Part shown: positions 2,726-11,370 of the stretch, in pieces
Numbering within the stretch: position 1 is the stretch's first letter
Layout: every line of letters starts with the position of its first letter
Origin: a virus
Lineage: Duplodnaviria > Caudoviricetes
IMG/VR virus record: IMGVR_UViG_3300030106_002604
Span: 1 to 55,909 of that record
Length of the DNA: 55,909 nt
Strand: one strand, 5' to 3'
The notes under the pieces: model-generated
Seen by the model: only the letters and a program-made list of their open reading frames with translations
What the model was told of the DNA's origin: nothing
Databases searched by the model: none
Translations under genes and position numbers: made by a program

Positions 2726-2978
2726 TGTCGTTTGCAATCATTAATAGGACCATGTATCCAGCACAGTCCAATAGTGTATCCTCTGTCTCATCATTGAGAC
2801 CTACATTAGCTATTCTTTTTAGCTTATCGTCAAGTCTTATCCTTATAGCTTCGGATGCTTTGAGGGAAGAAAAAATGCCTACAGGGTTCAAAGCTGAATC
2901 CCCGTAAGCATCGTTCTTCTGTATAAGCAAGTCCTCAATCTCTTGACATTTTAATTTTATTTTTTCCTTTGTGTTCAT
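2595..2978 (-). CDS. DUF1599/Nmad1-like protein
   Basis: KNDAYGDS...RLDDKLKRI...EDTLLDCAGY motif. Confidence 0.75.
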   Translation of the reverse strand: MNTKEKIKLKCQEIEDLLIQKNDAYGDSALNPVGIFSSLKASEAIRIRLDDKLKRIANVGLNDETEDTLLDCAGYMVLLMIANDNESNDIQKCVREGESSSHTNGNSSEQDSSGEVWFDNISGTRWS

Positions 2979-3210
2979 CTGTTGTTACTTGAGATCGTGA
3001 TAACTCCACACTCTCCAATATCTCACGTATGATAACCTCTTTATTCTTTGCCTTTGGTGTAAAGTATTTATCACGTAGGCGGTGCATAGTTCTGTCATCG
3101 TAGCGCATGATATCGGATGGTGTGTCGAATACAGTGACTATCCACTCTCTACGCTCGTGTACAACCTTCCGTTTCTTGAAGGCGACACGAACATGAGAGT
3201 GTTTAATCAT
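2935..3210 (-). CDS. Hypothetical protein
   Basis: ORF in operon; ATG 3210 lies just after the upstream stop at 3215. Confidence 0.7.
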   Translation of the reverse strand: MIKHSHVRVAFKKRKVVHERREWIVTVFDTPSDIMRYDDRTMHRLRDKYFTPKAKNKEVIIREILESVELSRSQVTTDEHKGKNKIKMSRD

Positions 3211-3214
3211 GGGT

Positions 3215-3517
3215 TTAGAATGGCATGTCATCTACCGTCTCAGTAGCCGCCTGTTTTGCAGCTCTTTTCTCCTTAGCAGCAGCGCTGTTAGGATCATAGC
3301 ATCGGCAACAAGGCTTACCATTTTTTGACATAAACTGTGTCAGATAGATGTTACCTCCCTGACCTTGTTCATTACGCTGTGTAGCGTACTTGTCGATCAT
3401 TTCTTTGAGCTCATGATCTTTGAAGCGGACGCTCCAGCTCATCAACTCTCCTGCCTCATTGTAACGAGGCTCCTCAGCGTACCCAACTAGCACGCTATCG
3501 TATTTAACTTCACTCAT
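3215..3517 (-). CDS. Putative single-stranded DNA-binding protein
   Basis: Acidic DDMPF C-terminus; next to recombination genes. Confidence 0.6.
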   Translation of the reverse strand: MSEVKYDSVLVGYAEEPRYNEAGELMSWSVRFKDHELKEMIDKYATQRNEQGQGGNIYLTQFMSKNGKPCCRCYDPNSAAAKEKRAAKQAATETVDDMPF

Positions 3518-3577
3518 ATGAAATAAATTAAAGGTTAAAAAATAACTACGTTAAAAGGTAGTTGTAAATAATGTGGT

Positions 3578-3609
3578 CAAATGTAAAAAATAAAACCACG
3601 TAAAACAAA
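3578..3609 (-). promoter_or_regulatory. Bacteroidota promoter TTTG-N20-TACATTTG
   Basis: Full consensus, intergenic, upstream of the SSB-like gene. Confidence 0.75.
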
Positions 3610-3621
3610 ATTTTCAATGTT

Positions 3622-4383
3622 TTATACTGTGAATTCTGCATAATAATTTTGTGTTGGAGCTCCTTCTGTCAACCACTTACGTATGTTAGCTAGAGCTTCA
3701 TTGAACTTCATTTCTCCTCTGAATAGAGTTTCATCAGAGCACTTTACTAAGGCTGGGTAGAATGGGTATGCTTTTTCTTGCACAACCCAGTAGTAATCCT
3801 TGATCCCAAACACTTGTGTATATATGTAGGCTTGGATGTCATAACACCAGCTGTTTACGTCATAGCGAAACTTATCTATGCTACGTGATGACTTGCTGTC
3901 TGTTATAAAACCATCCCCCAAGCAGTCAAGGAATCCTCTGACGGGTACGCCGTCAATCTCTTCATTAAATTCTACTTGATACTCTCCAGATAGATAGCTA
4001 CTAAGTAGACCGCAAGCTTCAAGCCTGCCGATCATCTCAACCGCTTTCTTCCAGTCTTCTTGTGTGACGAGCGTCTTACCCTCATTCTCCTTAGCAATCT
4101 CTGTCTTCCATTCTCGGTAGCGTTTAGTATTCCTAGGATATTTACCACCAATATCGGCGACAATATCGCCGTCATCCAAACGATAAAATTGATCATCTAA
4201 TTTTTCTGGTTCAAACAACATCATGTCGTAAAGGCTACCAAATGTCAAGGCATCTGATTCTTTCTTTAGCTGACCCCTCATGTACATTTCCCAAAGACGC
4301 ATATCTCCAAGAGCGTACTTGATAGACGAGTAAGAAAGGTGTCCCTTACCTACATATTCTGTTAACTGTTGTCTCAATGTCAT
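3622..4383 (-). CDS. RecE/exonuclease VIII-like PD-(D/E)XK exonuclease (DUF3799-like)
   Basis: LSYSSIK, FGSLYD, RGFLD...DSKS, YDIQAYIY motifs. Confidence 0.8.
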   Translation of the reverse strand: MTLRQQLTEYVGKGHLSYSSIKYALGDMRLWEMYMRGQLKKESDALTFGSLYDMMLFEPEKLDDQFYRLDDGDIVADIGGKYPRNTKRYREWKTEIAKENEGKTLVTQEDWKKAVEMIGRLEACGLLSSYLSGEYQVEFNEEIDGVPVRGFLDCLGDGFITDSKSSRSIDKFRYDVNSWCYDIQAYIYTQVFGIKDYYWVVQEKAYPFYPALVKCSDETLFRGEMKFNEALANIRKWLTEGAPTQNYYAEFTV

Positions 4384-4898
4384 CTTACAAACTTCTTGAG
4401 TCCAGCTACTTGTTTTTCAGTGAGTTGCTCACCATACTTAGATACTACAGAGTCAAATGCCTTATGCTTATCTGTCGATGTCTTGATGTAACCGACTGCC
4501 TTGTCCATGATATTCTCTACACGTGCAGATGAATCTGCAGACTGCTTCGCAATAGCATCATTTACTTCATTTGCTGATGCAATAGAGGTATCAATACCAA
4601 TCCCCATCATTGCTAATGCTCTACCAATAGCTGATGTTTCACAGTTTTCTACATAGCTAGTCTTGTTGATATGACTACCAGACTTCTCTTCATGTGCGTG
4701 TCCTGTAGCAATTACACGCTGATCTGTGTCAGCTATGATGCATTTACATACACACATTTCTGAATCCAACGCTGTGAACTCTGTTGATATTGTCCAGTTT
4801 TTGTACTCATCTTCTTGACGGAAGAACTTGATACGCTCGTTTACTTCGACGTATTGTTTGCCACGTATGTTCGTGGTCTTAAACTTATACTTACTCAT
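4380..4898 (-). CDS. ssDNA-annealing protein (Sak/Rad52-like recombinase)
   Basis: GKQYVEVNERI...ATGHAHE...ENCETSAIGRALAMMGIG; paired with the exonuclease. Confidence 0.7.
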   Translation of the reverse strand: MSKYKFKTTNIRGKQYVEVNERIKFFRQEDEYKNWTISTEFTALDSEMCVCKCIIADTDQRVIATGHAHEEKSGSHINKTSYVENCETSAIGRALAMMGIGIDTSIASANEVNDAIAKQSADSSARVENIMDKAVGYIKTSTDKHKAFDSVVSKYGEQLTEKQVAGLKKFVR

Positions 4899-4921
4899 TA
4901 TACATTAAATTATATTGTTTA

Positions 4922-4953
4922 CAAATTTACTTATTAAAAATATTCTAAGCAAG
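4922..4953 (-). promoter_or_regulatory. Bacteroidota promoter CTTG-N20-TAAATTTG
   Basis: Boxes at 4953-4950 and 4929-4922. Confidence 0.65.
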
Positions 4954-5329
4954 AAATTTCTCGCTTAATCTTGAGATACATGCCAAGACTCTGCATCATC
5001 TTGACTGCGCCTGCTTTCATACCGTAAGCTGCTCGCTCGTAGTCTACCTTAAAGGTCTGCTCTGATCCGAGTAGCTCTTCGATCAACTCCTCACCCGCAT
5101 AGCTTGATGCAAGTTCTGTGAGTAGTTCGTCCATTGTGGAATCGGTTACCTCTATAAATATCTTTATGATATCCTCTGGTGTCCATTTCTTCCACTCATC
5201 GTACCCAAACTTCTGTATGTCTATCTTGCACAGATTACCTGCACAATCTACTATGTCGAAGTCATCATCATCTTCACAATCATCCATAAAGATGTCTATG
5301 TATCGTAGTGCTTCCTCGTCTGTAATCAA
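4934..5329 (-). CDS. Hypothetical acidic protein (131 aa)
   Basis: TTG start overlaps the upstream TGA; D/E-rich N-terminus. Confidence 0.7.
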   Translation of the reverse strand: MITDEEALRYIDIFMDDCEDDDDFDIVDCAGNLCKIDIQKFGYDEWKKWTPEDIIKIFIEVTDSTMDELLTELASSYAGEELIEELLGSEQTFKVDYERAAYGMKAGAVKMMQSLGMYLKIKREISCLEYF

Positions 5330-5499
5330 AATCCAAAGTTTTTACATTGATGATAAAAAGGATCTAAAATCTCTGGTCTATAATAAAGGTTTGTATCCTC
5401 ATATTCTCTAACAAACAGCTTGATAAGGTGCATAGCATCTACATGTTTAGGTGTGAGGTGCATGCTTGGTGGTATTAAATGTTCTGTTGTTTTACTCAT
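5326..5499 (-). CDS. Small hypothetical protein (57 aa, MSKTTEHL...KNFGF), not in ORF track
   Basis: Manual translation; start and stop overlap both neighbours. Confidence 0.6.
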   Translation of the reverse strand: MSKTTEHLIPPSMHLTPKHVDAMHLIKLFVREYEDTNLYYRPEILDPFYHQCKNFGF

Positions 5500-5573
5500 G
5501 GTTTATTGTTTTGATAGGTTAAATAAAATGCTGTTACTATATAGAATAGTGCAACTGGTATTAGTATTGTCAT
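5496..5573 (-). CDS. 25-aa membrane peptide MTILIPVALFYIVTAFYLTYQNNKP
   Basis: Manual translation; ATGA overlap with next ORF; hydrophobic. Confidence 0.5.
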   Translation of the reverse strand: MTILIPVALFYIVTAFYLTYQNNKP

Positions 5574-5591
5574 GTGAATTTGTATGTTTGA

Positions 5592-5861
5592 TTATTTTTT
5601 GGTAGAATTTAGTAGATCTCCAACAGCCCATCCAGCTTCTAGGTCGTCTAACCATATCTTTTTTTCTTTTTTAAGAAAATCCCAAGCAAACTCTATAAAG
5701 CTGTCCTCATTTAGGGAACTTCCTTCAAGTTTCCACCACTTGTCAAATAGTTTATTGCAATGTTCGTATGGAGCGTTTTGTATATCAAAGGAAAAATTGC
5801 ATTGATAAGCTTGAGTGAACCAGAAATAAGCTTTGTCAGTTTTGTCAAATCGTATTTTCAT
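5592..5861 (-). CDS. Hypothetical early protein (89 aa)
   Basis: ORF with AT-rich leader. Confidence 0.7.
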   Translation of the reverse strand: MKIRFDKTDKAYFWFTQAYQCNFSFDIQNAPYEHCNKLFDKWWKLEGSSLNEDSFIEFAWDFLKKEKKIWLDDLEAGWAVGDLLNSTKK

Positions 5862-5890
5862 TATGTGAATTTATTCATGTTAATTAAATT

Positions 5891-5988
5891 TAGTGTGAGC
5901 AAGAGGAATCGAACCTCAATGCATAACCAATAAAAGCAGTCAATCGGGTAGGGGCATCACACCCTAGCGGATCTTGCCAGACGCTCAC
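5891..5988 (-). ncRNA. tRNA-like element without canonical D/anticodon arms (98 nt)
   Basis: Acceptor GUGAGCG/UGCUCAC, T-arm GAGG-UUCGAUU-CCUC, discriminator A then CUA; intergenic. Confidence 0.7.
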
Positions 5989-5999
5989 TAGGTATGTCG

Positions 6000-6182
6000 T
6001 TACATACCAATCAATATCTCAAACGCTTTATCCATTGCATAGGTGCGTTGCTGTGTTATCGTGCCGCACACTTGTGGTGTCGGTAACATTATGTGTGTTG
6101 ATTCTAACGTGTAGAAATCTTCATGTCTTTGTATAGCATTAGCTATTTGTCTTTGGTGGTATAGTCTTTCTTGTGTAGTCAT
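6000..6182 (-). CDS. Hypothetical early protein
   Basis: ORF, operon strand. Confidence 0.65.
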   Translation of the reverse strand: MTTQERLYHQRQIANAIQRHEDFYTLESTHIMLPTPQVCGTITQQRTYAMDKAFEILIGM

Positions 6183-6214
6183 GGTGTGTTATTTTACTTT
6201 CATATATCCAACGC

Positions 6215-6451
6215 TTAGTCTTCGACTGACGTTCCTGTTTCGGTGTTATCATAGGCATCATCCTTTGGAACTTCACTATGCTTTGCTTTATGTAAATCAT
6301 TTAGTTGAAGTTGTAGTTGCTCTGCTATAATGCGCCAATGCATTGCTGATTTTAACAGACTCGACTTTGTATTTGCTTTTAGGGCAGACTTAATCTGTTC
6401 TTTTGTCCACCCTTCTAGTGGGTTAAATTCTTGTTCGTTACTCATACTCAT
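6215..6451 (-). CDS. Hypothetical early protein
   Basis: ORF, operon strand. Confidence 0.65.
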   Translation of the reverse strand: MSMSNEQEFNPLEGWTKEQIKSALKANTKSSLLKSAMHWRIIAEQLQLQLNDLHKAKHSEVPKDDAYDNTETGTSVED

Positions 6452-6632
6452 CTGCTTTTATACCCCATAACATATCACGTGGCATCTCATCGAATACCAC
6501 CATGCTACCTTTATGCATTTCGCTAGGGGAGTTTTGTACTATTGTTTGTGCTTCTTCTCTTGTTAGAGAATGGTATAGGATATCCTTATCAAAGTTATCT
6601 CTATACACTCGGTATACTGCGTAATTTTTCAT
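6438..6632 (-). CDS. Hypothetical early protein
   Basis: ORF overlapping neighbours. Confidence 0.65.
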   Translation of the reverse strand: MKNYAVYRVYRDNFDKDILYHSLTREEAQTIVQNSPSEMHKGSMVVFDEMPRDMLWGIKADEYE

Positions 6633-6801
6633 CGTTTGTTATTTCTTTTATTGCGTCAATTAACATATCTCTAGCGTGTGTCGGATCGGATAGCACCGCT
6701 TGTACTAGCCATTCAAATTCATCTGCTAAGTTTTGTCCGTCATATCCTGAACTTAGAATATCAACGTATCTTTCTGCTCGTTTGTGTAGTTCGTAACTCA
6801 T
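6601..6801 (-). CDS. Hypothetical early protein
   Basis: ORF overlapping neighbours. Confidence 0.65.
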   Translation of the reverse strand: MSYELHKRAERYVDILSSGYDGQNLADEFEWLVQAVLSDPTHARDMLIDAIKEITNDEKLRSIPSV

Positions 6802-6904
6802 TTTGTTTTGGTTTAATTGGTTTTGTAATTAGCTCTGCTAGTTCATGCATACTGAATGATGCGAAACCTGTTTGTGTTTTTGGTTTACGTTGTTTGTCCT
6901 TCAT
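6761..6904 (-). CDS. Small hypothetical protein (47 aa, MKDKQRKPKT...)
   Basis: Manual translation; fills a gap in the operon. Confidence 0.45.
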   Translation of the reverse strand: MKDKQRKPKTQTGFASFSMHELAELITKPIKPKQNELRTTQTSRKIR

Positions 6905-7031
6905 ATTTATTAAAATTACTTACTATTATCTCGCACATAGTTCTCAAAGTGCGGTCTGGCATGTCGTCAAAGTGTGTAAGCAAGTCCTCTTGCACTCGCT
7001 CTCTTAGTTCTCGTAGTTGATGTATTGTCAT
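6885..7031 (-). CDS. Small hypothetical protein (48 aa, MTIHQLRELRERVQEDLL...)
   Basis: Manual translation; ATGA overlap with the upstream gene. Confidence 0.6.
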   Translation of the reverse strand: MTIHQLRELRERVQEDLLTHFDDMPDRTLRTMCEIIVSNFNKYEGQTT

Positions 7032-7216
7032 ATCATTGTAATGTTTCCGTCTGTGTCTATGTAACCTGCTTCAATTAGGGCTGATGCAGTTCGCCCGTAA
7101 CTACCTTGTAGTGTCCATGCCATGCCATTGCTGATTAGTTCAGCGAATAGTTCTAGCACTCCCGTGTCATCTAAAAGACCACACTCGAAGTCAATTATTT
7201 TGTCTGTTATATTCAT
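7028..7216 (-). CDS. Conserved small phage protein (62 aa)
   Basis: LFAELISNGMAWTLQGSYGRTASALIEAGY motif; ATGA coupling at 7213-7216. Confidence 0.75.
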   Translation of the reverse strand: MNITDKIIDFECGLLDDTGVLELFAELISNGMAWTLQGSYGRTASALIEAGYIDTDGNITMI

Positions 7217-7452
7217 TGGTTTACTTTTGCTTTTACGGTTAGTATTTCTGTGTCGCATTGCTCAAGCTCTGCTTCGCCTAGCGTATCCCATATGTCGTCG
7301 TATAGGTCATATTCAAGCTCTTTCGTGTAGAACTGTCCCAAGTCATCACCTAGCGTTATTCTTTCAACGGCTGATGGCGTTAGGTTGTCAGGTAAAGCTA
7401 CCTCGATTGTTGTGGTGTATGTGCGCACCACTTCTATTTCAAATGTTTTCAT
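7213..7452 (-). CDS. Hypothetical early protein (79 aa)
   Basis: MKTFEIEV start just after the upstream stop. Confidence 0.7.
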   Translation of the reverse strand: MKTFEIEVVRTYTTTIEVALPDNLTPSAVERITLGDDLGQFYTKELEYDLYDDIWDTLGEAELEQCDTEILTVKAKVNQ

Positions 7453-7454
7453 GA

Positions 7455-7580
7455 TTATTGGTTTTTTGTCCATGTTTCGTATGCAAAGTCTATTGCATCG
7501 TTGATTTCTATTGCCTCTTCACGAGTGATTGTGTACCCTTCTATTCGGTACACTTCGATAATGTTATCTATTACGTCCAT
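7455..7580 (-). CDS. Small hypothetical protein (41 aa, MDVIDNII...)
   Basis: Manual translation; first ORF after the 7620 promoter. Confidence 0.55.
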   Translation of the reverse strand: MDVIDNIIEVYRIEGYTITREEAIEINDAIDFAYETWTKNQ

Positions 7581-7619
7581 GATGTATTAATTGGTTTTCG
7601 ATTGGTTTGAATCGGACTG

Positions 7620-7651
7620 CTAATATACAACAGACTTTTCCAAATTCCAAA
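7620..7651 (-). promoter_or_regulatory. Bacteroidota promoter TTTG-N20-TATATTAG
   Basis: Near-consensus boxes, intergenic. Confidence 0.7.
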
Positions 7652-7675
7652 TTTATTTTTCTAATAACGTAGTTA

Positions 7676-8011
7676 TTACTTGTATCTATTGACCTTCTTA
7701 GCGTTGTCATCATAGATATTTCTTACCACCATACCTAGATGGTCGGCTACATAGCTAATGTGCTTTGATGTAGTGGGTGAGTGCCACTTGGGTGCGACTA
7801 GCGTGCCTACATGCTCCCAACCCCATGCAACGTCAGTATTGTAGCTTTTAACGATGATTTTCCAACCATTTGAGCCACAAAATTCTTTGCGCACAGAAAG
7901 ATTCTGCTTGTACTTTGGTAAATCGACTGATTTCGTATACGGTACACCCCACAAGTGTCCGTCATCACGATACATTTCGTAGTCGTGGTCTGCTTTTTCT
8001 AATAGTCCCAT
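7676..8011 (-). CDS. Conserved early phage protein (111 aa)
   Basis: SYNTDVA...WHSPTTSKHISY motif typical of small early phage proteins. Confidence 0.7.
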   Translation of the reverse strand: MGLLEKADHDYEMYRDDGHLWGVPYTKSVDLPKYKQNLSVRKEFCGSNGWKIIVKSYNTDVAWGWEHVGTLVAPKWHSPTTSKHISYVADHLGMVVRNIYDDNAKKVNRYK

Positions 8012-8023
8012 GTTTATTGGTTT

Positions 8024-8173
8024 TTAAAAGTTAATATCTAATTTCGCTTGTTCGCAAAATGCGTCTGCTACGAGGTTTGCGCCTTCTGTATCCTCACACC
8101 ATGTGAAGTACTCGTATGCTAGTTCTAGCTCTTCAAAGCTAAAGCCTCTATATGGGTTGAATATTCTACTCAT
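8024..8173 (-). CDS. Small hypothetical protein (49 aa)
   Basis: ATG 8173 (MSRIFNPY) follows the upstream stop at 8184. Confidence 0.6.
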   Translation of the reverse strand: MSRIFNPYRGFSFEELELAYEYFTWCEDTEGANLVADAFCEQAKLDINF

Positions 8174-8183
8174 TATGCGTGGT

Positions 8184-8354
8184 TTAGTGTATGATTGTGT
8201 TATCAAAATCGTGAGTCATAAATTCGATATCCTTTAGCCTAAAGCCTTGTTCATCTATCCACTTTTCAACGTCCTCTATTTGAGCGCCTACTAGGTGTTC
8301 GGGCAGGTTATACTGATGCACCTTACCACTTGCGAAGTCTAAGATTGTAATCAT
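8184..8354 (-). CDS. Small hypothetical protein (56 aa, MITILDFASGK...)
   Basis: ATG 8354; the longer start in the ORF track falls inside the ribozyme. Confidence 0.7.
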   Translation of the reverse strand: MITILDFASGKVHQYNLPEHLVGAQIEDVEKWIDEQGFRLKDIEFMTHDFDNTIIH

Positions 8355-8374
8355 AATGTGTAAATTTTTAAATT

Positions 8375-8504
8375 GACATAGACTACCCTCTGCAAACACC
8401 TTCAGATTTTTTTACACGTTAGGCAAACAGGGATACAAGTGATATGTTTGCGTGTGCTTGTCTGCGTTGGGTAGTTTCGACTAATCGAGTCTCATCAGTA
8501 TGCC
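8375..8504 (-). ncRNA. Type I hammerhead ribozyme with extended stem III
   Basis: GGCAUA-CUGAUGA-GAC(UCGAUUA)GUC-GAAA-CUACCC-[~80 nt]-GGGUAG-UC-UAUGUC; all core residues and three stems present; predicted cut between 8381 and 8380. Confidence 0.9.
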
Positions 8505-8929
8505 TATAATAATATTTCTTTCTGGTTTTTACAGTCATAAATTGCGATTTCGCCGCGTTTTTTCGCTATGTCCGTAGCTACGTCTAGGTTATACAGGTGT
8601 TGCACAAGGTCGAAGTATATCTGTCCTTCGTGTACCCATGTGCCTACACCCATGCCTGCCTTGTACAAGTTGCTTGTGTAATCGCCAAGTTTTAGTTGAT
8701 ACTTATCCCATAGCTTTTTGAACGCTTTGAAGTGTGTGCTCACATCAGGGTATGCGCTCCCGTCAACCTCTGCGTACATAGTGGTTGGTTCAGTTAGACC
8801 ACCTACGATGTAACCTTCGGTTGGGTTGGTTTTGCCGTCTGCAAGGCTTGTATACCCACCGTCTATGAGCGTATTGGCGTACGGTATACGCTTCTCGTAT
8901 TCTTTCAGTAAGTTCATAGAATAATTCAT
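8504..8929 (-). CDS. Early protein (141 aa), function unknown
   Basis: GTW...YFD...A...EIAIYD pattern; its stop codon abuts the ribozyme. Confidence 0.8.
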   Translation of the reverse strand: MNYSMNLLKEYEKRIPYANTLIDGGYTSLADGKTNPTEGYIVGGLTEPTTMYAEVDGSAYPDVSTHFKAFKKLWDKYQLKLGDYTSNLYKAGMGVGTWVHEGQIYFDLVQHLYNLDVATDIAKKRGEIAIYDCKNQKEILL

Positions 8930-8952
8930 GATGTATAAAATTTTGGTTTGTA

Positions 8953-9006
8953 AGAGGGTTTATATACTACTCTCATAAATGAGAGGAGTAGTATATTAAA
9001 CCTTCT
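8953..9006. other. Long imperfect inverted repeat (hairpin)
   Basis: AGAGGGTTTA-TATACTACTC...GAGTAGTATA-T-TAAACCTTCT. Confidence 0.8.
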
Positions 9007-9011
9007 AAAGG

Positions 9012-9060
9012 TTAGAGCCAAGAGGGGATTCGAACCCCTTCGCACCCTGTGTGCTTGGCT
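9012..9060 (-). ncRNA. Minimal tRNA-like element (acceptor stem + T-arm, 46-nt core)
   Basis: AGCCAAG-CACACAGGGUGCGA-AGGGG-UUCGAAU-CCCCU-CUUGGCU-CUAA; perfect 7+5 bp; intergenic. Confidence 0.8.
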
Positions 9061-9068
9061 TGTGTGTG

Positions 9069-9464
9069 TTACGCCACCTGTGGCGCACCGTCCATGAGCG
9101 CCTTGCAGTAGCGAACAGCATCTTCAACTGAGTAACCTATCGAACGAAGTTCGCTGAATTCAGGTAGCGTATTCACCTCTGCAACGTCTTCGGGTATGAA
9201 GTTCTCAGCTATCGCTGATTGCTTTTGCGCTTGCGCCTCGAGCTTTTGGTTTTTCGAAACCTTTCGCTTTGCCTTGCGCTTTGGCTTGCGCTTTGGTGTA
9301 GGTGCTACTTCTTCGAGGTTAGACACAAAGTTGGCTAAAGTCTCCATAGACTCTGACAGCTCCCTAAGGAGCTTCACAGCGTGTGCCTTGCGCTCTGCTG
9401 TAGGGTTGAACTTCGCTTGATTAAAGGCTTTCTTTGCCTGCTTGATGAGTGTGCTTGTAAGCAT
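9069..9464 (-). CDS. First early gene, basic hypothetical protein (131 aa)
   Basis: ATG 9464 downstream of the promoter; KRKPKRKAKRK patch. Confidence 0.75.
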   Translation of the reverse strand: MLTSTLIKQAKKAFNQAKFNPTAERKAHAVKLLRELSESMETLANFVSNLEEVAPTPKRKPKRKAKRKVSKNQKLEAQAQKQSAIAENFIPEDVAEVNTLPEFSELRSIGYSVEDAVRYCKALMDGAPQVA

Positions 9465-9512
9465 GATGTAAGATTTTTGGTTTGTACCCTTCGATTTTCG
9501 AAAAGCATACCA

Positions 9513-9544
9513 CAAAGATAGGGAAATAAAACACCGATGTCAAA
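9513..9544 (-). promoter_or_regulatory. Major early promoter TTTG-N20-TATCTTTG
   Basis: Perfect Bacteroidota consensus at the head of the leftward arm. Confidence 0.85.
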
Positions 9545-10298
9545 TTTTTTAGGGATTAATTTCGTGCGCGATTTCTCCCGCAGGAAGGTTACGAAGTAAC
9601 CCGCGTGGAAACAGGCGAAAATTTGGGCTATGGCGCGAGCGCTTGCGAGTGCATGAGGCGCACATGAGGCGAGGGGATTTTGTACTGATAATTGAATTGT
9701 CAATACAAAGCTTAATACTAAGCTACGCTTAGTATTATAATTGTCAATACTAAGTAGGAATTATCAATAGTAAATCCCCTGAAAGGGGAACGTATATTTA
9801 AAGCAAAGGTTTAGGTAGGTGATTGTCCCACGCTTACAATCATTGCAATACGTGCTGCGTTGTGAAGCTATGCTTTAGGTAGATTTACTTAAGTGACTGG
9901 TTTACAGCAGAGTAAAAAGCTAGAATGTATGCGCAAAACTGCAACTTTGTTGCAGGGGGTGGTCAAAAAAAGTCGTTTCGGGTGCGCTACGCTAGCGTCG
10001 TGTAATATATATAATCCCCATCCTCTACATTTCTGGCATTTTTTTCGAGATTGCCTACAGATCTGCCGAAATCTAGCAGGATTCTACACTTATATCAATC
10101 ACGCTAATTTACTTTAGAGGCCATAACGCTGTGATTTGCAACTTTTTAGATGCTGTTTCTTAAATAATCTCTTTAATCTTGACTTTTAAAAAAAAAGTTT
10201 ATACCTTTACGGCATCGACAATGAAGATGATAGGCTGTTCAGATGTATTTTTGTATGTACTGAAGAGTCTATTGTAGTTTAAACGCAAGAATAGTTGT
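9545..10298. other. Divergent non-coding control region (candidate origin / genome end)
   Basis: Longest gap, strand switch, direct repeats AATTRTCAATAS x3, palindromes, G-run at ~9955. Confidence 0.55.
10178..10209 (+). promoter_or_regulatory. Putative rightward promoter CTTG-N20-TACCTTTA
   Basis: Near-consensus with 20-nt spacer. Confidence 0.45.
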
Positions 10299-10592
10299 AT
10301 GCGAGTAAAAAAGAGAGACCCTAAGGTAGGTACTGGGAAGAAACCCAAAGGATCTGGTAGAAGACTCTACACAGACGAGAATCCTAAGGATACTGTCCGC
10401 ATTAAGTTTGCTACACCAGCAGATGCTAGAGCTACTGTTGCTAAAGTTAAGAGAAGTGGGAAACCATTTGCAAGAAAAATACAGATTCTTACTGTAGGAG
10501 AACAGAGAGCAAAGGTGATGAAGAAGAATGAAGTGGTGAATATATTTAAAAAGGGTAAAGACTCTATACGTCGTGAAAGTAAAAAAGAATAA
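10299..10592 (+). CDS. Small basic phage protein (97 aa)
   Basis: GTGKKPKGSGRRLYTDENP; first ORF of the plus arm. Confidence 0.75.
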   Translation: MRVKKRDPKVGTGKKPKGSGRRLYTDENPKDTVRIKFATPADARATVAKVKRSGKPFARKIQILTVGEQRAKVMKKNEVVNIFKKGKDSIRRESKKE

Positions 10593-10692
10593 ATTTGTAG
10601 CTAGCGAAATAAAAAAGCTAATGAAGAAGGGTAAGCCTATGAAACAGGCTGTTGCCATAGCTCTGAGCATGTATGAAAGGAAAAATAAATAA
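10573..10692 (+). CDS. Small basic protein (39 aa, MKVKKNKF...KQAVAIALS...)
   Basis: Manual translation from GTG; QAVAIALS motif also in the 27682 ORF (QAAIAIA). Confidence 0.6.
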   Translation: MKVKKNKFVASEIKKLMKKGKPMKQAVAIALSMYERKNK

Positions 10693-10695
10693 CCT

Positions 10696-10703
10696 TATAT
10701 TTG
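10696..10703 (+). promoter_or_regulatory. -7 box TATATTTG
   Basis: Intergenic, 4 nt before ATG 10708. Confidence 0.55.
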
Positions 10704-10707
10704 CATC

Positions 10708-11370
10708 ATGCCACACACGCCCGATCATAAAGGACTCTTGAAGACAGATAGATTGTCAGCTTCAGAAAGAAGTAGACTTCGTACCTTGAGGAGAAAGAAA
10801 AAAAGTGGATCTTTATCTGGCAGTCAGCTTGCAGAGCTTAAAGGTTTAAGAAAACAAAGAAGAAAAGCTATAGGTAAAGACTTATTAAAAGCAGGTGCAT
10901 TAGTTGGAGGAGCAGCTTTAGCAGCACCAGCCTTAGCTGGAGGAGCAGCAGCAGCAGCGGGAGGTACAGGTGCAGCAGGTGCAGGAGGTGCAGGAGCAGG
11001 TAAATTACTAGGGTTAGGTAAGTTGGGTAAGTTAGGTAAGGCTATTGAGGGTGCAGATAAGCTAGGTAAAATAGGTAAAGCTGTTGAGGGTGCAGATAAG
11101 CTAGGTAAATTAAAAAAGGCTGTTGATGTTGTAGGCGACGTTAAGGAAGTTGCAGAAGGTGTAAAAGAAGTAACAGGAGCATTAGGTGATGTTAAAGATT
11201 TAGTAGCTCCTAAGCCTTTAATGGAAGATATGATTGGAGAACCACAACCTATACAGCCTACACAGCTACCTCAGATAGACAATACTGTACAAGGTGGTGG
11301 GCTTGCTGGTTTAGCAAATACTTTTAAGTATGGCGGTAGAGTTAGAAAGAAAAAGAAAAAGAAAATATAA
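10708..11370 (+). CDS. Gly/Ala-rich putative internal virion protein
   Basis: Basic N-terminus, Gly/Ala tract, 13-aa tandem repeat, KYGGRVRKKK tail. Confidence 0.7.
   Translation: MPHTPDHKGLLKTDRLSASERSRLRTLRRKKKSGSLSGSQLAELKGLRKQRRKAIGKDLLKAGALVGGAALAAPALAGGAAAAAGGTGAAGAGGAGAGKLLGLGKLGKLGKAIEGADKLGKIGKAVEGADKLGKLKKAVDVVGDVKEVAEGVKEVTGALGDVKDLVAPKPLMEDMIGEPQPIQPTQLPQIDNTVQGGGLAGLANTFKYGGRVRKKKKKKI
11035..11112 (+). repeat. 39-bp tandem repeat x2 within CDS
   Basis: GKA(I/V)EGADKLGK(I/L) encoded twice. Confidence 0.85.

Follow-up and report, generated by a model that had tools for sequence, protein, structure and literature searches.

Hammerhead, tRNA-like and hairpin RNA modules at early-gene junctions of a marine Flavobacteriia-type phage

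The early region of the virus record IMGVR_UViG_3300030106_002604 raises the question of whether the structured RNAs lying between its genes set the boundaries of the early mRNAs. The window, by which we mean the whole IMG/VR record (55,909 bases, ~90% complete), carries in this region a hammerhead ribozyme, a 45-nucleotide (nt) element shaped like the top half of a tRNA (the mini-tRNA, or mimic) and a 54-nt hairpin. Comparison with related loci supported the view that all three are conserved, structure-constrained RNA modules located on the coding strand at gene junctions. The best explanation as a whole, towards which we lean, is that the operon carries three separate RNA modules that would set mRNA boundaries. 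To our knowledge, the shaping of early mRNAs by Bacteroidota phages is almost unstudied. Throughout, W denotes the window copy, L### related loci, G### genomes, and X1 and X4 sequencing runs. The features on which the argument turns were as follows, the last of them being found in relatives.

9069..9464, minus strand: gene 1, 131 amino acids (aa) from its ATG, from the open reading frame (ORF) list
9016..9060, minus strand: mini-tRNA with a 7-bp acceptor stem (AGCCAAG/CUUGGCU), a 14-nt linker, a 5-bp T stem and the loop UUCGAAU
8953..9006, minus strand: 54-nt hairpin with a conserved base, AGA-A-GG / CC-C-UCU, that keeps an A.C mismatch, and a variable upper stem
8504..8929, minus strand: 141-aa gene, from the ORF list, family phrog_17808
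8375..8504, minus strand: type I hammerhead with a complete catalytic core, stem I open
8389..8468, minus strand: structured 80-nt insert in stem III of the hammerhead, defined by alignment with compact relatives that do not have it
8184..8354, minus strand: next gene, 56 aa, starting 26 nt past the predicted hammerhead cut
5891..5988, minus strand: 98-nt tRNA-like element with a 7-bp acceptor containing a G.U pair, the T-arm loop UUCGAUU, a non-tRNA interior and an A-CUAA tail
L051:78-178, L056:1152-1252 and L057:1152-1252: long form (~101 nt) of the tRNA-like element, occupying the junction where the window has the mini form, two distinct sequences

On the minus strand the order was promoter, 5' hairpin, leader, gene 1, an 8-nt spacer, mini-tRNA, 54-nt hairpin, leader, 141-aa gene, hammerhead and 56-aa gene. 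The early genes between gene 1 and the promoter-bearing gap at 3621-3518 overlapped or almost abutted, apart from three gaps (139, 149 and 138 nt), which were the only intergenic gaps of at least 100 nt between 9464 and 3622. The 139-nt gap held the mimic and the hairpin, the 149-nt gap the hammerhead and the 138-nt gap the 98-nt element. The original prediction for this DNA, made from its letters, had listed the promoter, the mini-tRNA, the hairpin, the hammerhead and the 98-nt element, and each of the five was recovered in its place on the minus strand. Its remark that the mimics and the ribozyme begin within 11 nt of a stop codon was borne out as well, with the mini-tRNA starting 8 nt and the 98-nt element 11 nt after the stop, and the ribozyme overlapping it.

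The hammerhead was analysed through its catalytic core and its relatives. The core consisted of CUGAUGA (8498-8492), GAAA (8478-8475), the A8475-U8382 pair equivalent to A15.1-U16.1, and C8381 as C17. Stem I was formed by 8504-8499 and 8380-8375 (GGCAUA/UAUGUC), its first G doubling as the last base of the stop codon; stem II spanned 8491-8479, and stem III paired 8474-8469 with 8388-8383. GUC was present, and the cut is predicted between C8381 and U8380. Relatives were gathered via the 141-aa protein and a DNA pattern, yielding six distinct versions, four of them compact (50-58 nt). The core nucleotides were the same in 6/6 aligned variants, 95/95 cells were paired, and five pairs were compensated (four in stem I and one in stem II), a covariation score reached by 0/500 shuffles. 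A structural descriptor recovered seven distinct hammerheads in 313 kb, one of them in the window, and 0-1 in each of 10 shuffles. From these sequence features the element is very probably a true ribozyme, and it probably cuts in vivo.

Among Rfam models, RAGATH-1-hammerhead (RF03152) was the best; the core, stem I, the start of stem II (GAC) and stem III (CUxCC) aligned with it, whereas model positions 1-25 had no counterpart here. The compact hammerhead of L004 scored 29.2 bits (E = 0.0017, model 26-77 of 77) and the window copy 16.2 bits (model 27-76 of 77, with 80 nt taken as an insertion), both below the gathering score of 56.3 bits. Hammerhead_1 (RF00163, gathering score 34 bits) did not match the window copy and gave 17.1 bits for L004.

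The 80 nt that the model treated as an insertion were structured. Between W and L008, the inner helix of the insert (GCAAACA/UGUUUGC) carried a compensated change from C-G to U-A, and the insert is a candidate regulatory extension of the ribozyme. That it might be an independent element was rejected, an exact 23-nt piece of it being found elsewhere solely in the hammerhead of the L008 contig. A promoter inside the insert was likewise rejected, with 0/5 sites of the TTTG...TAnnTTTG type falling there.

The ribozyme was also found to occupy more than one junction. The same ribozyme with the same stem I followed three different genes (in W, L007 and L069; in L008; and in L004), and the inserted module, lying between TA(G) and the leader, began and ended precisely with stem I. 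The same gene pair had the ribozyme in L069 and was without it in L002 and others, where the genes overlapped at ATGA. In a DNA contig from run X1, 26 other letters replaced 8388-8489, giving a compact ribozyme (minus strand) with yet another stem II. A loose hammerhead pattern run on five whole records returned mainly chance matches, and by eye a stem II was seen only in three known copies. Another viral contig, L011, contained two type I hammerheads approximately 700 nt apart (593-654 and 1302-1359) with differing stems I and III, resembling the clustered arrangement described in 2011.

The mini-tRNA was examined in the same way. Its features correspond to a tRNA top half: the 7-bp acceptor ran straight into a T stem of 5 bp, the loop was of the UUCRANN type, and the 3' tail was single-stranded. 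The linker contained a small CAC/GUG hairpin, and the discriminator C at 9015 was followed by UAA. A strict descriptor was used (UUCRANN loop, five paired T-stem positions, seven acceptor pairs directly following, and a linker of 3-90 nt), a relaxed one having been set aside as unspecific with 1-9 matches per shuffle. The mini-tRNA was the sole match of the strict descriptor in the window, with a mean of 0.01 over 100 shuffles. A pattern scan for relatives returned 10 stretches, of which five were relatives and five were unrelated coding sequences that were dropped (L017, L018, L019, L021 and L023). In eight distinct variants, 116/120 cells were paired and two pairs were compensated. The fifth acceptor pair was A-U in 4/8 and U-A in 4/8; one T-stem pair was G-C in 5/8 and A-U in 3/8, those three being lengthened by one position on each side of the T stem. 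The sixth T-stem position present in some variants was either paired or U.U. The loop UUCGANU was kept in 8/8, and the linker matched at 13 or more of its 14 positions in 7/8. A covariance model built from the variants found one copy each in the window genome and in G001 and none in G002, G003 or G009; the 98-nt element was not recovered by it.

The mimic did not pass as a tRNA. ARAGORN reported 0 genes in the window and in seven related loci, and Rfam gave no match for the elements at gathering scores and no tRNA match in 5500-9800 at E up to 10. Against mascRNA-menRNA (RF01684) the mini-tRNA scored 20.0 bits (E = 1.4), short of the 42.5-bit gathering score; the likeness is one of shape only.

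Longer forms of the element narrowed down which part of the fold is kept. The ~101-nt form had the same neighbours as the mini-tRNA, namely the upstream gene on one side and the hairpin on the other. It had an acceptor (AGCCUAG/CUAGGCU), a T arm and a C-UAA tail in common with the mini form, and an interior of ~66 nt with a GUGYG/CGCAC hairpin; in alignment, the mini form equalled the ~101-nt form minus two internal blocks. Neither a tRNA finder nor Rfam took the ~101-nt form for a tRNA, only its T arm matching the tRNA model (12.8 bits). The 98-nt element of the window was a further long form with its own acceptor and its own interior. It was near-identical in seven other viral contigs, in some of which (L073 and L077) the flanks or neighbouring genes differed, and its few substitutions lay in loops or loop-closing pairs, one of them turning G-C into G.U. 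One discriminator base followed by CUAA (or CUAU) stood after both window elements (9015-9012 and 5890-5887, minus strand) and after the ~101-nt form. What all family members retained was the stack of acceptor and T arm plus the N-CUAA tail, and the interior varied from 14 to ~66 nt. With the acceptor and T arm constant while the interior differs, it is apparently the tRNA top half that is under selection. The acceptor/T-arm stack is the part read by RNase P, RNase Z, the CCA-adding enzyme and T-loop modification enzymes; the constant part is therefore the part recognised by tRNA-processing enzymes, which is the best, if indirect, argument that RNase P and RNase Z might act here.

The tRNA-like pieces could also be attachment sites that the phage copied from a host tRNA gene's 3' end, phage attP cores often repeating the T arm and the 3' acceptor strand of such genes. 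This origin is highly improbable: both acceptor strands were present and co-varied, the 23-nt 3' half of either element had 0 exact matches in one genome each of 185,579 species, and no integrase was found among the ORFs scanned, which were part of the total.

The third module, the 54-nt hairpin at 9006-8953, followed the mimic. A 136-nt stretch comprising both folded at -41 kcal/mol (z = -6.8, 0/200 shuffles as good). Six hairpin variants gave 20 consensus pairs in RNAalifold, seven of them compensated, and the flanks UU/UA were constant. The original prediction had proposed looking for covariation in relatives, and compensated pairs were indeed present in the hammerhead (five), in the hairpin (seven) and, thinly, in the mini-tRNA (two). 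In every case a leader and an AUG lay within ~25 nt 3' of the hairpin, which was also found before genes other than the 141-aa gene and after genes other than gene 1. A small ORF running from an AUG in the hairpin loop to the AUGA of the gene was rejected as unconserved, L004 having no AUG and L042 an early stop.

Being strong, near-perfect and directly downstream of gene 1, the hairpin might be read as a terminator or attenuator of the gene 1 transcript, with the mimic, where present, protecting the 3' end. It also resembled plastid psbA 3'-UTR (untranslated region) stem-loops, by shape only (33-36 bits, below the gathering score). Termination is nevertheless quite unlikely. The stem was A/U-rich and had no U-tract, being followed by UACAAACC; a terminator scan made no call there, the hairpin being absent from the 10 terminator-like sites of 3000-10800. 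Moreover, a conserved translation leader and a gene came at once after the hairpin, and the hairpin preceded other genes even where gene 1 was not upstream. The hairpin would instead be either a 5' stabiliser of the downstream mRNA or an RNase III site. Its ~23 predicted pairs can be set beside the about two turns of double-stranded RNA by which RNase III sites are judged. The stabiliser reading is favoured because a parallel hairpin follows the promoter.

We then asked how the modules were distributed among relatives. The hairpin was present at 30 loci, counting the window, in 22 distinct upstream contexts. Directly upstream of it, 16 loci carried the mini form, one of these cut by the locus edge, three carried the long form, and 11 carried neither. 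In 7/11 of the loci without a mimic, a homologue of gene 1 lay upstream and a spacer of 20-25 nt took the mimic's place. At the end of the 141-aa gene, 46 related loci showed an ATGA overlap with the next gene (39 loci), a spacer of 11-21 nt (five loci) or a hammerhead (two loci, L007 and L069). In L005 a 21-nt spacer lacking the ribozyme separated the 141-aa gene from the 56-aa gene. Marine DNA contigs showed, at 8354-8925, the leader of the 141-aa gene connected straight to the 56-aa gene, both the 141-aa gene and the ribozyme being missing; runs X1 and X4 supplied this variant and the compact one. The elements had been proposed to form one cassette, with co-occurrence in related phages as a check. 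The parts instead assorted independently (hairpin without mimic at 11/30 loci, hammerhead after the 141-aa gene at 2/46), so the cassette is not a unit; the window alone had the mimic directly before and the ribozyme directly after the 141-aa gene. At junctions the parts behave as modules that can replace one another, and each can move independently. Genomes of this group held at most one copy of each module, which makes the punctuation sparse rather than gene-by-gene.

A sister group of phages (L003 and L007, and also L029, L033, L035-L037, L040, L043 and L052) had neither mimic nor long hairpin, and a 17-nt palindromic hairpin, TGTCCACCTAGTGGACA, was repeated at several of their early-gene junctions (in L003, for example, at 1899-2016, 2542-2615 and 2919-3012). 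Its loop was CUAG, UGAG or UUAG.

An alternative is that the modules are passengers, a selfish or drifting hammerhead and decaying remnants of a larger tRNA-like gene, recombined at the leaders without helping expression. Their presence was patchy at identical junctions and limited to 0-1 copy per genome, the mini form looks like the long form less two internal blocks, and the DNA contigs either lacked the 141-aa gene and the ribozyme or had a compact ribozyme at the same place. We regard this account as unlikely, since each of the three elements had compensated pairs and perfect stems. The modules were, in addition, always on the coding strand and exactly between a stop codon and a leader, and the acceptor and T arm were kept while the interior was lost, which is the opposite of random decay.

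The reading that we prefer, modules that set mRNA boundaries, would work as follows; we infer every cleavage event, and every effect on mRNA stability or translation, from the sequence. Each module has a stop codon on its 5' side and the short, A/C-rich leader of the following gene on its 3' side. If the hammerhead cuts between C8381 and U8380, the mRNA of the 141-aa gene would end, on its 3' side, in the folded ribozyme with a 2',3'-cyclic phosphate, and the transcript of the next gene would open with a 26-nt leader bearing a 5'-hydroxyl. Excision of the top half, which has no anticodon arm, would most likely involve host RNase P cutting at its 5' side and RNase Z, or an enzyme like it, cutting behind the discriminator. 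Whether these enzymes do excise the mimic is a close call that, in our estimate, falls just short of probable. Excision would separate gene 1 from the downstream part, leaving its mRNA without the 3' part and without a protecting structure. The 54-nt hairpin would then head the downstream mRNA, as another hairpin heads the primary transcript, and in this phage the 141-aa mRNA would thus be bounded by a hairpin at its 5' side and a folded ribozyme at its 3' side. More tentatively, the mimics could represent an undescribed family of tRNA top-half RNAs (45 to ~101 nt) in marine Flavobacteriia phages that hijacks RNase P and RNase Z to punctuate early mRNAs, functionally interchangeable, where a stop codon meets a leader, with hammerheads and hairpins; once freed, the mini-tRNA might also be a decoy for enzymes or defence nucleases that target tRNA acceptor ends.

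Several observations weighed against the mRNA-boundary reading. All three modules were dispensable in close relatives, so none is essential for the operon. The invariance of stems II and III of the hammerhead was partly due to the search pattern, which found three of the six sequences. The pattern fixed the first stem II pairs and the 5' strand of stem III, and the independent evidence therefore comes only from stem I and the inner stem II pair. The window hammerhead lay below every Rfam gathering score, and its fold energy was no better than that of shuffles (z = -1.3). For the mimic, two double-changed pairs were also reached in 413/500 shuffles and may reflect few events, so its support lies in the paired cells and not in many independent pairs. 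An A1-U72 start without an encoded CCA, both of which are traits of the mimic, does not make the best substrate for bacterial RNase P. The 98-nt element had no compensated pair, two of its substitutions broke predicted loop-closing pairs, and its interior folded no better than shuffles (z = -0.3). Finally, the 14-nt linker was more conserved than the stems, which a pure processing signal would not need.

The near-invariant linker would agree with a mimic whose main role is in trans: a stable small RNA that could serve as decoy or competitor for host enzymes, or defence nucleases, targeting the acceptor end or the T arm of tRNAs, with cutting of the transcript serving only to release it. The N-CUAA tail common to two otherwise different elements can be read the same way, as can the loci where the mimic is missing and the hairpin stays, showing that the operon can be expressed without a mimic. 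We nevertheless consider a mainly trans-acting role improbable. The mimic has no anticodon loop and so does not imitate the substrate of anticodon nucleases, and only one copy is present per genome.

We next compared the modules with known systems. Tentatively placed beside the mimic are mitochondrial tRNA punctuation, plant mitochondrial t-elements and MALAT1/mascRNA, in which a tRNA-shaped fold, embedded in a longer RNA, defines mRNA ends by attracting RNase P and RNase Z. The mimic would be like them if the proposed excision holds, and it gives the weak mascRNA-menRNA match. Unlike them, it lies in a bacteriophage operon and consists of a 45-nt top half or of ~100 nt with a non-tRNA interior; with 20 bits against 42.5, it falls outside those families. 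The early transcript of T7 is processed at RNase III sites. Like those sites, the 54-nt hairpin is a long hairpin between genes of an early polycistron, directly ahead of a gene; it differs in being near-perfect, with one conserved A.C mismatch and a bulged A, and in its Bacteroidota host.

For the hammerhead, a precedent was available. As stated in the part of the report consulted, Perreault et al. 2011 (PMC3088659) described clustered hammerheads that flank genes of prophage operons and cleave in vitro and in E. coli, and read them as processing long phage transcripts into shorter mRNAs. The window hammerhead agrees with that account in being canonical, on the coding strand and between genes of a polycistron whose neighbouring genes vary. 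It differs in occurring as one ribozyme per genome, in its 80-nt stem III insert, and in a role shared with tRNA-like and hairpin modules. Theta (HDV-like) ribozymes adjoin phage tRNA genes, according to the part of PMC10879173 consulted. The likeness is that a small self-cleaving ribozyme and tRNA-shaped RNAs stand in one phage transcription unit; unlike theta, the ribozyme here is a hammerhead and lies a whole gene away from the mimic, and the mimic cannot decode, whereas theta ribozymes adjoin decoding tRNAs. The combination had been put forward as without prior description. This claim held for the tRNA part only: at title and abstract level, the literature searched gave no description of tRNA-like, minihelix or tRNA-punctuation elements in phages, top-half mimics included, and what seems to be undescribed is the family of top-half tRNAs, mini and long forms together. 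Hammerheads punctuating phage operons, on the other hand, are already published, as the consulted part of PMC3088659 makes clear.

If the mRNA-boundary reading is true, a phage sets its mRNA boundaries by three small swappable RNA devices, one of which borrows host tRNA maturation. tRNA punctuation as in mitochondria and MALAT1 would then extend to bacterial viruses, and phage hammerheads, whose role has been open since 2011, would have a natural function. The mini and long forms at one junction provide a natural deletion series showing the selected part of the fold. Short portable modules of this kind could also be insulators between genes in synthetic Bacteroidota operons.

The signals upstream of the modules were the following.

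9513..9544, minus strand: early promoter of the Bacteroidota type (-33 TTTG, -7 TAnnTTTG), TTTGACATCGGTGTTTTATTTCCCTATCTTTG, by pattern match
9478..9512, minus strand: 5' hairpin of the primary transcript, -13.1 kcal/mol, z = -4.6, 0/200 shuffles as good
8930..8949, minus strand: leader AAACCAAAAUUUUAUACAUC before the AUG of the 141-aa gene, a second copy of the gene 1 leader

Bacteroidota hosts have unusual promoters and no Shine-Dalgarno-led initiation. The TTTG...TAnnTTTG pattern occurred at five sites in the window versus 3.2 expected and by itself was not significant. The promoter at 9544-9513 was, in addition, the top sigma-70-like site within 3000-10800 (10/12), and its sequence recurred upstream of gene 1 in the relatives L002 and L005. 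At the place equivalent to the 5' hairpin, L002 (2420-2441) had a hairpin of different sequence and weaker z (-1.8). The opening hairpin of the primary early transcript thus differed in sequence between relatives and kept its fold. The leader AAACCAAAAAUCUUACAUC-AUG followed the 5' hairpin and preceded gene 1. Its pattern, AAACCAA...ACAUC-AUG, occurred four times in the window, all on the minus strand in the early region (9483-9462, 8949-8927, 7597-7578 and 6823-6799). The leader came after the promoter, after the hairpin and after a second promoter-like site (7650-7622), and in the relatives L008 and L004 after the hammerhead. The conserved leaders look like seams for the reshuffling of genes and modules.

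The phage is marine and of the Flavobacteriia type. The public runs containing the window stretch were marine metagenomes, and the primase-helicase was closest to proteins of Maribacter (34% identity) and Cellulophaga (30%) phages. Genes on the minus strand ran from ~10,670 to 1 and comprised small early genes, a PD-(D/E)XK-like protein and the primase-helicase; structural genes, a portal among them, followed on the plus strand. Gene 1 had no significant family match in Pfam or PHROG, and relatives of the 141-aa gene were encoded in eight viral and 44 metagenome loci. A blastn search of 8100-9700 against 50,697 deposited phage records gave no match, and no RNA-processing enzymes of the phage were found among the ORFs scanned, which covered part of the set. 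The 104-nt gap at 3518-3621 (minus strand) marked the end of the early operon; in it, a second promoter of the TTTG...TAnnTTTG type (3609-3578) preceded the replication genes. In G001 (L002:4297-4568), the promoter-bearing gap, ~200 nt in other relatives, had an extra ~70 nt.

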